24,000 bases of DNA from Oscillospiraceae bacterium (GTDB lineage: Bacteria > Bacillota > Clostridia > Oscillospirales > Ruminococcaceae). The notes under the pieces were generated by a model. That model worked only from the letters and a program-made list of their open reading frames with translations. It was not told the DNA's origin and searched no databases. The DNA lies in assembly GCA_034933305.1 (NCBI GenBank), contig JAYFNU010000003.1:148417-172416 (forward strand). Direction: 5' to 3'. The position numbers and the translations under genes were made by a program. Shown here piece by piece: positions 15,663 through 17,246 of the stretch (the stretch's first letter is position 1; each line of letters begins with the position of its first letter).

Positions 15663-17246
15663 ATGCCTGAGATAGAGTTCCTGTCGCTGTTTGACGTAGA
15701 TGCCGAAAGCGACGCCGCGCTGCTGCGCAGGCTGTCGCGGTTCTTGCTGGAAAAGGGATACGTGCGGCCTTCCTTCGAGGCCGCGGTGCTCGCGCGGGAG
15801 AAGAAGTATCCCACGGGGATCATGGCGCAGGAGTTCGGCGTCGCCATCCCGCATACGGACTGCGAACACGTCGTCCGGAACGCCGTCGTCACCGTCACGC
15901 TGCGCCGGCCCGTCAGCTTCGCGGCGATGGGCGGCGAAGAGGGGGAGACGGTCCCCGTCGAATGCCTTTTTCTGATCCTGCTCGCCGAAACGGGCGCGCA
16001 GGTCAAGCTGCTGATGCATTTCATGAAGATCATTCAAAATAGGGACGACCTCAGACAGGTCAGGAATTCTCACGATGCTTCGGAGGTCGAAGCCCTTCTG
16101 CGCAATTATCTTACGGATGGCGGGGAGGCGCCGAAAAAAATGCAGGAGCTGGAAAAGCATATTTTTGAGCTTTCGAAATTGCACGGGATCTCTTCCCGGG
16201 AGGACGAGGCGGCGCGCTACATGCTCGACGCTTTCCGGGCGGTGGATGCGGGGGCGTCGATGGACGTCCTCGGCAACGTGACATGCCATGTGAGCTGCGG
16301 CGATCCCGGCGCGAAGAAGCTGCTCATCTTTGCGCATACCGATGAGCTGGGCTTTATCGTCCGCAAGGTCGAGGAGGACGGTTTTCTGCGGATCTCAAGA
16401 GTGGGCGGCGTCACCGTCAACGTGCTCCCCGGCGCCTCGGTGGACGTGCTCGCAAAAGGCGGCGTCGTGCGGGGTGTCATCGGCGTCAAGAGCCACCATG
16501 TCATGACGGCGGACGACAAACGGTACGTTCCGGAGGTCGACGACCTGTACATCGATATCGGCGCGAGCTCGCGCGCGGAAGCGGAAAAGCGCGGCGTGCA
16601 CACGGGCTGCTTCGTGACCTTTGCGGCGGCAGAGCCCGTGAAGCTCGGCGGCGACCTCATCTGCGGGAAGGCCATGGACGACAGGAGCTGCTGCGCCGTG
16701 CTCATCGAAGCGGCGAAGGGGATCCAAAAGCTCGCCCAGAGCAAAAAGCTTCGCTGGGATGTGTACCTCGTCGCCTGCGTGCAGGAAGAATTCAACGTCA
16801 GAGGCATTATGCCGGCCGTCAACAGCATCCGCCCGGATGCCTCGATCGGCATGGATATCTGCATTGCCGCCGATACGCCGGAACTCAAGGGATACTCCGA
16901 GATCAGGCTCGGCGGCGGCCCCGCGATCACCTATCTCAATTTCCACGGGCGCGGGACGCTGGCGGGCGTGTTGCCCGACGAGAAGCTTCTTGAACGGCTG
17001 GAAGGCGTTTTTGAAGATGAAAAGATCCGTTTTCAGCGTGAGGTCAGCCTCGGCATCATCACGGAGAATGCCTTTATATCCTTCCAGAACGAGGGCGTTG
17101 CGGTGGCCAATATTTCGGTCCCGTGCAGATATACGCATTCACAGATAGAAACGGTGGACGAAAGAGATCTTGAGGACATGGTCAGGGCCCTCGTCGCTTT
17201 CTCGGGTTCCCTTGGTGCGCAAGAGCGCTTCGGTAAAAATTCGTAA
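15663..17246 (+). CDS. Fusion protein: PTS EIIA (PTS_EIIA_2, mannitol/fructose/Sgc type) plus M42-family metallopeptidase (SgcX/FrvX/YpdE-like)
   Basis: Residues ~1-150 carry FGVAIPHTDCEHV (phosphorylatable His in the G-x-A-I-P-H context) and VECLFLILLAE. Residues ~170-527 carry all M42 metal and catalytic signatures in order: FAHTDELGF, GKAMDDR, VQEEFNVRG, IGMDICIAAD, CRYTHSQ. It is one uninterrupted 527-codon ORF, with GAGGAG as RBS. Confidence 0.85.
   Translation: MPEIEFLSLFDVDAESDAALLRRLSRFLLEKGYVRPSFEAAVLAREKKYPTGIMAQEFGVAIPHTDCEHVVRNAVVTVTLRRPVSFAAMGGEEGETVPVECLFLILLAETGAQVKLLMHFMKIIQNRDDLRQVRNSHDASEVEALLRNYLTDGGEAPKKMQELEKHIFELSKLHGISSREDEAARYMLDAFRAVDAGASMDVLGNVTCHVSCGDPGAKKLLIFAHTDELGFIVRKVEEDGFLRISRVGGVTVNVLPGASVDVLAKGGVVRGVIGVKSHHVMTADDKRYVPEVDDLYIDIGASSRAEAEKRGVHTGCFVTFAAAEPVKLGGDLICGKAMDDRSCCAVLIEAAKGIQKLAQSKKLRWDVYLVACVQEEFNVRGIMPAVNSIRPDASIGMDICIAADTPELKGYSEIRLGGGPAITYLNFHGRGTLAGVLPDEKLLERLEGVFEDEKIRFQREVSLGIITENAFISFQNEGVAVANISVPCRYTHSQIETVDERDLEDMVRALVAFSGSLGAQERFGKNS

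Follow-up and report, generated by a model that had tools for sequence, protein, structure and literature searches.

The 24-kb window, the whole stretch of DNA analysed here, carries a forward-strand operon (13468-20538) with the gene order DeoR, SIS, NagB-like, EIIA-M42, EIIB, EIIC-GAT, SgcE-like epimerase and SgcQ/BtpA. The promoter scan returned a promoter-like site (13418-13446) ahead of the first gene, which encodes an SgcR-like DeoR-family regulator (13468-14253, +; Pfam HTH_DeoR and DeoRC). The next two genes encode a KpsF/GutQ-like SIS-domain sugar-phosphate isomerase without CBS domains (14279-14923, +; Pfam SIS, NCBIfam KpsF/GutQ below cut-off) and a NagB-like, i.e. glucosamine-6-phosphate deaminase-like, protein (14925-15659, +; Pfam Glucosamine_iso, NF001684 with an E-value of 5.6e-62 and below cut-off, and a gene call in locus L003). 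Downstream of the fused EIIA-M42 ORF are genes encoding: a PTS EIIB of the galactitol/SgcB type (17267-17551, +; Pfam PTS_IIB, NCBIfam GatB-like); a PTS EIIC of the EIIC-GAT, SgcC type (17564-18994, +; Pfam EIIC-GAT, E-value 1.9e-67, and TIGR00827); an SgcE-like member of the ribulose-phosphate 3-epimerase (RPE) family (19035-19655, +; Pfam, and NF005944 with an E-value of 2.3e-45); and, as the last gene, a member of the BtpA/SgcQ family (19732-20538, +; Pfam BtpA, E-value 6.9e-86, TIGR00259 above cut-off). The terminator scan placed a terminator-like hairpin after it (20608-20642). Genes are closely packed, with 1 nt between the SIS and NagB-like genes and 3 nt between the NagB-like gene and the fused ORF; tight spacing being general in the operon, the closeness of EIIA and M42 is nothing special.

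M42 genes adjoin PTS genes in several E. coli operons, FrvX (frvABXR) and YpdE (ypdDEFGH) being examples. The content of the window operon is of the sgc type and not of the E. coli frv or ypd type, and the NCBIfam models PRK09961 and PRK09864 gave the M42 part 141 and 126 bits, far under their equivalog cut-offs of 412 and 569. All seven sgc-type components are present in the window (M42, EIIA, EIIB, EIIC-GAT, BtpA/SgcQ, RPE-family epimerase and DeoR), with the SIS and NagB-like genes as extras. The first-pass annotation had placed the M42 gene in a PTS operon, and the homology to E. coli sgcXBCQAER bears this out: that operon encodes a homologous M42 protein (43% identical to the window M42 part), EIIB, EIIC-GAT, BtpA/SgcQ, SgcE, the DeoR-type SgcR and the EIIA SgcA. 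The E. coli operon differs in its order (X-B-C-Q-A-E-R, with sgcA three genes from sgcX), in its unfused genes and in having neither SIS nor NagB-like genes; it is located in the KpLE2 cryptic prophage island, and according to a study of July 2026 its substrate and biochemistry have yet to be established (PMC13343008). In the clade of the window, the operon has gained a glucosamine-6-phosphate deaminase-like gene and a SIS isomerase.

The fused ORF (15663-17246, +) has an ATG start and 527 codons plus stop, and joins an sgcA-like and an sgcX-like coding sequence in frame, according to the ORF list, the translation and Pfam. The translation runs through without any in-frame stop, ruling out a frameshift or a stop in the given sequence. 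The single ORF joining EIIA to M42 thus stands as first described, uninterrupted and with PF00359 and PF05343 both above cut-off. The protein is an exact match to NCBI protein MEA5050288.1, which comes from an Oscillospiraceae metagenome-assembled genome (MAG) and forms a cluster of one member.

The EIIA part (PTS_EIIA_2; amino acids 1-159, 15663-16139, +) was delimited by Pfam, homologues and PDB entry 1xiz. PF00359 matches amino acids 10-148 with 94.7 bits (cut-off 27; E-value 6.6e-27; profile positions 10-143 of 144). His64 (15852-15854), the presumed phospho-acceptor as in other members of the family, lies in the motif GVAIPHTD, identical in 1xiz, the closest solved EIIA (E-value 1e-20), and its context is kept as (V/S)IPH(T/A)D in stand-alone EIIA orthologues; the GVAIPH context pointed out from the sequence is therefore correctly placed and conserved. 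The EIIA part is ungapped and collinear with the stand-alone EIIA proteins of relatives, sharing 54% identity over 153 amino acids with that of the related locus L001 (158 amino acids) and 41% with that of locus L002 (160 amino acids). A search with the EIIA part alone, limited by its word index so that the fused protein itself was not among the matches, returned four stand-alone EIIA proteins of about 155 amino acids. No second EIIA-like sequence was found in the 24-kb window.

The SgcX-type M42 part (amino acids 160-527, 16140-17246, +) was defined by Pfam and by alignment to PhTET2 and MJ0555. PF05343 (Peptidase_M42) matches amino acids 204-507 with 250.6 bits (cut-off 23.2; E-value 2.1e-74), covering profile positions 1-290 of 292. 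The signatures listed in the first-pass annotation are all present and rightly placed: HTDE (H225, D227 and E228), DDR (D339), QEE (E375 and E376), MD (D398) and RYTHS (H492). The metal ligands of the fused protein are H225 (16335), D339 (16677), E376 (16788), D398 (16854) and H492 (17136), the catalytic glutamate is E375 (16785), and D227 (16341) belongs to the HxD motif, all on the + strand and by alignment to PhTET2. Their counterparts in PhTET2 (1y0r), as aligned by phmmer, are H68, D182, E212/E213, D235 and H323; the ligands of the two metal ions in the numbering of that structure are H68, D182, E213, D235 and H323. The misalignment of ligands that would have spoken against an active enzyme was thus not found with phmmer, and the metal ligands, the catalytic glutamate and D227 are invariant across alignments of SgcX-type proteins. 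The five metal ligands are conserved in the M42 family, E212 is the catalytic glutamate of PhTET2, and characterised M42 enzymes work as 12-subunit particles (PMC3511314). The best PDB match of the M42 part is MJ0555 (9qr6; E-value 1.8e-59). The M42 part has the Pfam family, the five ligands and the catalytic glutamate in common with TET/M42 aminopeptidases (PhTET2 1y0r, MJ0555 9qr6, TmPep1050 and CelM); whereas these characterised members are stand-alone cytosolic aminopeptidases, forming dodecamers and encoded outside sugar operons, the window M42 part is a predicted hydrolase. NFHGRGTLAG and G(V/I)ITENA are conserved as motifs particular to the SgcX-type proteins, and PhTET2 differs at both. 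An AlphaFold model with alignment depth in the M42 half only (pTM 0.70) gave residues 160-527 a pLDDT mostly above 90, and much of the EIIA half and residues 149-157 a pLDDT below 50; it does not inform on the EIIA half or on domain packing. For a fusion seen once and lacking a co-evolution signal, a modelled placement of His64 relative to the metal site would in any case be unreliable.

The two parts meet at 16122-16142 (+), where a Shine-Dalgarno-like GGGGAGG (16122-16128) is followed by a run of seven A (16134-16140) and by the ATG of Met160 (16140-16142), with no in-frame stop. Met160 is the native M42 start: the M42 homologues in relatives all begin at its position, where the EIIA homologues also end, which leaves no linker at the join. 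The GGGGAGG site is 11 nt upstream of the ATG at 16140; in most other operon genes, a GGAGG-type site precedes the ATG by 5-8 nt. Either of the AAA codons at 16134 and 16137 could be turned into TAA by one substitution, and frame +2 reaches its next stop at 16166. The join has the look of simple stop-codon loss between two genes that are tightly packed or overlap: a linker is lacking, and the M42 gene has retained its ribosome-binding site and start codon.

The same genes are separate in the nearest relatives. L001 (GCA_036644175.1) and L004 (CGS10Y2-bin32), both Oscillospiraceae MAGs, encode M42 proteins 72-73% identical to the window M42 part and EIIA proteins 54% identical to the EIIA part, and have the same nine-gene order (DeoR, SIS, NagB-like, EIIA, M42, EIIB, EIIC, RPE, BtpA), but their EIIA (158 amino acids) and M42 (371 amino acids) genes are in different frames with an 8-nt overlap (ATGAGTGA). 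The M42 protein of L002 is 61% identical, and its locus keeps the core order from SIS to BtpA but has a PRD-type regulator instead of DeoR. Across the three loci, the EIIA proteins measure 158-160 amino acids and the M42 proteins 371-372, and the separate genes overlap by 8 or 1 nt. In related genomes more broadly, the two genes adjoin one another directly or share 1-14 nt. A stop codon was present in all 26 other EIIA-to-M42 junctions read at the DNA level, with spacing from -14 to +94 nt and overlapping stop and start codons in 12 of them. Nine metagenome loci (L085-L093) whose match extended over residues 7-527 were examined as possible fusions and rejected: in eight, where EIIA immediately precedes M42, a stop and a spacer of 4-73 nt separate the two, and L091 has an epimerase gene between EIIA and M42. 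In Enterobacteria, Chloroflexi, Brachyspira and several Bacilli, the EIIA gene is not adjacent to the M42 gene at all. The databases hold no relative closer than 72% M42 identity, and with the nearest relative at that distance the fusion could be older and selected.

One alternative is that the fusion reflects a minority variant, or an error of sequencing or consensus, at a site where EIIA and M42 are truly separate (eight A instead of seven, or TAA at 16134 or 16137). This would account for an architecture seen once, in a MAG from one source sample, with the A homopolymer, a classic site of indel errors, exactly at the join and with the M42 ribosome-binding site and ATG retained. Against this, run SRR27243471 was also assembled independently into a Logan contig, which is 100% identical over 7584 bases, junction included, and the sequence shows no stop or frameshift at the junction, close to the 16110 singled out at first as a place to look for one. 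The NCBI MAG and the Logan contig probably share the same reads, however, and the fusion sequence is known from one sample. An assembler-specific artefact was rejected as unlikely because the second assembly is base-identical. The seven operon genes around the fused ORF, moreover, show no frameshifts or truncations and have lengths within 4 amino acids of those of their orthologues; together with the base-identical Logan assembly, this speaks against a noisy, indel-ridden assembly. With an eighth A restored, the stop would fall at 16166 and the genes would overlap by 29 nt, outside the range of the 26 relatives; at normal coverage, moreover, a consensus seldom contains substitution errors. We therefore hold an error to be distinctly improbable.

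We consider it probable that read-through has fused neighbouring sgcA-like EIIA and sgcX-like M42 genes of an sgc-type PTS operon, and that this ORF is genuine but confined to one lineage. The EIIA stop codon is missing and the two frames coincide, so that translation from the ATG at 15663 continues across the M42 ribosome-binding site and start codon. The simplest origin would be one TAA-to-AAA change, at 16134 or 16137, or a small indel. Judging from the sequence, the product would be bifunctional, each half at its usual job: the EIIA domain would pass the phosphoryl group from HPr~P onto His64 and then to the EIIB of the operon, and the M42 domain may act as a cytoplasmic dinuclear-metal hydrolase on the imported substrate or on a nitrogen-containing substituent of it. 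The internal start, which has been kept, may also yield free M42 protein. As for the tether, it is probably neutral or close to neutral, and not a regulatory device.

The searches for other fusions agree with a single event. No other protein with EIIA and M42 was found in 5.8 billion protein clusters, the query itself being the only carrier of PF00359 plus PF05343, and a junction-spanning query, run exhaustively with HMMER against 1.84 billion representatives, gave no second fusion among the best 150; cluster searches see representatives, so that fused members under unfused representatives would be missed, and these findings hold among the matches listed. Together with the 26 junctions, the searches gave no recurrence of the EIIA-M42 architecture in other genomes, nor did the literature searched contain a report of it. 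Ten matches that aligned in two stretches (P0225, P0228, P0230, P0231, P0237, P0238, P0241, P0245, P0257 and P0326) were rejected as fusions, Pfam identifying them as M42-M42 tandems with no EIIA. Such tandems (about 700-790 amino acids, e.g. the first three) are the only multi-domain M42 architecture met among the matches listed; their partner is a second M42 and they recur in many clusters, whereas EIIA-M42 is a singleton. They show that a large N-terminal extension can precede an M42 domain.

This last point bears on the idea that the fusion is a first step of decay, in which read-through harms one or both functions, for instance the assembly of the M42 oligomer, and the operon is heading for loss. 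A singleton whose linker has no sign of adaptation would fit such a course, and a 159-amino-acid N-terminal domain might disturb the 12-subunit M42 assembly (particles described in PMC3511314). However, the natural tandems tolerate a large N-terminal extension, the catalytic residues, the whole operon and the terminator are intact, GC3 is alike in the EIIA and M42 halves (0.79 and 0.77), and the internal start could still supply free M42. Decay is in our judgement very unlikely.

The opposite reading is a selected fusion with real coupling, in which M42 would be gated by phosphorylation of His64, or the M42 oligomer would dock on the PTS and process the sugar phosphate as it comes in. It draws on the EIIA gene directly upstream of M42 in the 26 other loci, the 12 overlapping stop/start pairs among them, an EIIC-GAT gene within 6 kb of M42 in 59 of the 80 genome loci, and the intactness of both halves of the fusion. 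EIIA_2 domains are, in addition, regulatory modules in other fusions, as in PRD regulators, to which the PRD/EIIA regulator of L002 belongs. On the other side, no second fusion was found in billions of proteins (representatives, among the matches listed), the linker has not evolved and keeps the look of an intergenic ribosome-binding site, the EIIA gene has another place in the operon of E. coli and of many other lineages, and the fused EIIA is the only one in the window and must first serve transport. SgcX-type M42 and SgcQ, furthermore, lie beside an ABC transporter and FGGY kinases in 11-12 of the 80 loci, where no PTS genes were detected, indicating that the M42 protein is not generally dependent on the phosphorelay and arguing against the gating of M42 by EIIA phosphorylation put forward in the first-pass annotation. 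Coupling of this kind is unlikely. The more specific version, a fusion fixed and advantageous in this thinly sampled Oscillospiraceae lineage, in which an SgcA-SgcX complex would pre-exist in species with separate genes, and the M42 oligomer would scaffold EIIA at the transporter and process the substrate upon phosphorylation, seems to us distinctly improbable; if true, it would for the first time point directly to a hydrolase step coupled to the PTS and to what SgcX, FrvX and YpdE do.

The first-pass annotation had given the fusion the weight of Rosetta-stone evidence. Its description of the fusion, the intact catalytic residues and the membership in a PTS operon all stand, but that weight is unsupported, in view of the single occurrence, the linker-free stop loss, the often non-adjacent EIIA and the M42 genes outside PTS loci. 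Had the fusion to EIIA been recurrent, it would have hinted strongly at what M42 "peptidase" genes do in PTS sugar operons (sgc, frv, ypd); a single read-through event adds little beyond the operon linkage already known. The fused protein may nevertheless serve as a reagent, providing 1:1 co-expression of both parts, for tests of SgcA-SgcX interaction.

The comparative data from the loci are more useful than the fusion itself. In the literature searched, we found no report of activity for any SgcX-type member and no functional data on SgcX or FrvX. The full seven-component sgc-type set was present in 53 of the 80 genome loci, and the most faithful partner of the SgcX-type M42 gene was SgcQ/BtpA, found with it in 67 of the 80. 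This partnership, the ABC transporter/kinase contexts and the NagB-like and SIS genes gained in the clade point to a putative enzymatic role of SgcX-type M42 on a phosphorylated, possibly nitrogen-bearing sugar rather than in the phosphorelay. The earlier proposal that M42 might remove a substituent from the imported sugar phosphate, for or against which the fusion itself does not speak, is compatible with the NagB-like gene in this operon variant.

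The stretch from 15663 to 17246 (+) is a single ORF of 527 codons with an ATG start and zero internal stops, encoding a PTS_EIIA_2 domain (residues 10-148, E 6.6e-27) and a Peptidase_M42 domain (residues 204-507, E 2.1e-74, profile positions 1-290 of 292). Translation and Pfam therefore confirm the EIIA-M42 ORF proposed in the first-pass annotation, and all the motifs quoted there were found in it; NCBIfam was concordant with Pfam at the family level, below all equivalog cut-offs. The protein is identical to MEA5050288.1 (Oscillospiraceae MAG), whose cluster has one member. Residues H225, D339, E375/E376, D398 and H492 aligned in phmmer to H68, D182, E212/E213, D235 and H323 of the M42 enzyme PhTET2 (1y0r), the individual ligand and catalytic positions of that structure, so that the metal ligands and the catalytic glutamate claimed earlier are at matching positions. 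M42 enzymes have five conserved metal ligands, and E212 is the strictly conserved catalytic glutamate (PMC3511314). The EIIA motif GVAIPHTD (His64, 15852-15854) is the same in 1xiz, the closest solved EIIA. In an AlphaFold model with alignment depth for M42 only, residues 160-527 were confident (pLDDT mostly >90; pTM 0.70), the EIIA half was poorly predicted, and residues 149-157 had pLDDT <50.

Pfam and NCBIfam assignments place the fused ORF in a nine-gene unit on the (+) strand which includes genes for a DeoR regulator (13468-14253), a SIS isomerase (14279-14923), a GlcN-6-P-deaminase-like protein (14925-15659), EIIB (17267-17551), EIIC-GAT (17564-18994), a ribulose-phosphate-epimerase (RPE) family protein (19035-19655) and BtpA/SgcQ (19732-20538). 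Upstream of the DeoR gene is a promoter-like site, and the BtpA gene is followed by a 14-bp hairpin that has a T-rich tail. The gene set is that of the E. coli sgcXBCQAER operon (retrieved annotation), whose SgcX is 43% identical to the window M42 part. Because the EIIA part of the fused ORF is the only EIIA-like sequence within the 24-kb window, it should serve the EIIB and EIIC of the operon, to which it would donate its phosphoryl group. The additional SIS and GlcN-6-P-deaminase-like genes upstream of the PTS genes (14279-15659) define a sub-type of sgc-like operon, also present in the related loci L001, L002, L004, L023 and L082; most sgc-like operons are without these two genes, and the BtpA/EIIC/RPE set occurs without both in 53/80 genome loci. 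In L002 (a 61%-identical relative), a 694-aa PRD-type regulator with its own PTS_EIIA_2 domain (1594-3678) replaces DeoR.

The window's own proteins served as tblastn queries to annotate the related loci (80 from genomes and 16 from metagenomes). Besides the window, 26 loci had EIIA as the gene immediately before M42. The EIIA stop codon was present in 26/26, the spacing ranged from -14 to +94 nt, and stop and start overlapped in 12/26. In the nearest relatives, L001 and L004 (M42 72-73% identical, nine-gene order identical), the two genes overlap by 8 nt (ATGAGTGA); in L061 and L085-L087 they share a reading frame though unfused. Enterobacteria, Chloroflexi, Brachyspira and several Bacilli have EIIA at other operon positions. 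The SgcX-type homologues (360-377 aa) all start exactly at window Met160 (ATG 16140-16142), and stand-alone EIIA proteins from the nearest relatives, 158 and 160 aa long, match window residues 1-153 ungapped and end where Met160 starts; the join is consequently without a linker, the natural EIIA tail TDGGEAPKK running directly into the natural M42 N-terminus. The GGGGAGG at 16122-16128, 11 nt 5' of the ATG, is similar to the GGAGG-type sites 5-8 nt before most other operon genes, and since these start signals are retained, it is plausible that a free M42 protein is also initiated on its own. The final two EIIA codons (AAA AAA) form an A7 run with the A of ATG, and each is one substitution away from TAA.

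The chance that the fusion is an artefact appears small. No stop or frameshift, a possibility raised in the first-pass annotation, was present between the domains, and a Logan contig independently assembled from run SRR27243471 was identical to the window over 7584/7584 shared bases, join included. Seven neighbouring genes were orthologue-like in length (261/260, 214/210, 244/243, 94/94, 476/474, 206/203 and 268/270 aa), indicating that the assembly is not indel-riddled. A one-base repair to A8 would place the EIIA stop at 16166-16168, with a 29-nt overlap outside the range of the relatives; a TAA-to-AAA substitution would give a geometry well inside their spacing range. The fusion is best read as a stop loss between two tightly packed genes, and such packing is a general trait of the operon, with gaps of 1 nt and 3 nt ahead of the fusion.

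The searches for other fusions, as suggested in the first-pass annotation, yielded none among the cluster and HMMER matches listed or at the 26 junctions. Among the 120 matches listed from a full-length protein search of 5.8 billion clusters, only the query had both Pfam domains; the other 119 were stand-alone M42 proteins, nearly all of 355-387 aa with a few shorter partials (query coverage 55-70%). A junction-spanning query (residues 1-320, halves weighted equally) likewise gave no second fusion among the cluster matches listed. With the same residues as query, HMMER was run exhaustively on 1.84 billion representatives; its best 150 matches included stand-alone EIIA (~150-190 aa) and M42 proteins, along with two longer proteins that matched through the EIIA domain only. 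When the EIIA part (15663-16139) was used by itself in a word-indexed protein search, four matches only were obtained, and neither the query's own protein nor the 54%-identical EIIA of L001 was among them, so that negatives from this search carry little weight for this short, divergent domain. No mention of PF00359 and PF05343 together was found in the literature searched.

Proteins of ~700-790 aa with two matched stretches in the HMMER search were considered as fusions; the ten checked by Pfam were M42-M42 tandems. Such tandems recur among the cluster representatives (P0225, P0228, P0230, P0231, P0237, P0238, P0241, P0245 and P0326), one possibly with three M42 domains. Locus L079 has two M42 genes side by side, and in both L065 and L077 another M42 match lies ~1.6 kb upstream.

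With the EIIA-M42 protein, a known operon type gains a new fused variant, of which this is so far the only example. There is no indication of selection for the tether: the joining segment retains the look of an intergenic ribosome-binding site, and no further case of the architecture was seen. The stop loss was most likely near-neutral, and the two halves probably each keep their own job. The earlier interpretation, in which the fusion was Rosetta-stone evidence that the peptidase works with the phosphorelay or is regulated by it, is partly supported, a singleton carrying little such weight; the role of PTS-linked M42 proteins is no more testable through the fusion than through the conserved operon context. 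A study of July 2026 (PMC13343008) still describes the sgc substrate and protein functions, SgcX included, as unknown.

Across the 80 genome loci, SgcQ accompanies M42 in 67 and PTS genes in 59, SgcQ being at least as conserved a partner. In 11-12/80, SgcX-type M42 and SgcQ/BtpA occur with PTS genes, EIIC included, undetected, which argues against regulatory coupling of M42 to EIIA; this fits M42 acting as an enzyme on a phosphorylated sugar, however the phosphate is acquired. The earlier idea that M42 might strip a substituent from the sugar phosphate, here perhaps an N-linked one whose removal would expose an amino sugar phosphate, is compatible with an operon carrying deaminase-like and SIS genes, and is tempered by most sgc operons being without them. 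One locus with PTS genes undetected (L021, 5610-15288, Oscillospiraceae MAG) has as M42/SgcQ neighbours two FGGY kinases, a xylose-isomerase-like TIM barrel, a periplasmic sugar-binding protein and an ABC ATPase. In the SgcX-type alignments A2 and A5, NFHGRGTLAG(V)LPD and G(V/I)ITENA (window residues 426-438 and 464-470) stand out as motifs that hardly vary. At these positions PhTET2 carries a loop that is shorter and different, and GGGTDA, and MJ0555, another M42 enzyme, a related SGRGLIA; the motifs could help determine which substrate the subfamily binds.

Elsewhere, the window resembles ordinary chromosome, with GlmS (835-2742, -), a DUF5685 protein (4009-4959, -), a polysaccharide deacetylase (4972-5727, -), FeoB (6773-8785, +), a papain-family C1 peptidase-like ORF (8870-9619, -) and a LacI-family regulator (9734-10801, -). 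The KDPG/KHG aldolase (Eda) ORF (11022-11984, +; 320 aa) has its aldolase domain just at residues 5-198, and its C-terminal ~115 aa matched only Glyoxalase/VOC, weakly and below threshold (E 0.008); it may be a second unusual fusion. NCBIfam has a model for a 'KHG/KDPG aldolase/sugar kinase fusion protein' (NF041633), one half of which is matched by Eda and the other by the PfkB kinase (594 bits, profile positions 242-580). In the window this gene pair (11022-13018, +) is unfused, with 11 nt between the two genes, the opposite of the EIIA-M42 case.
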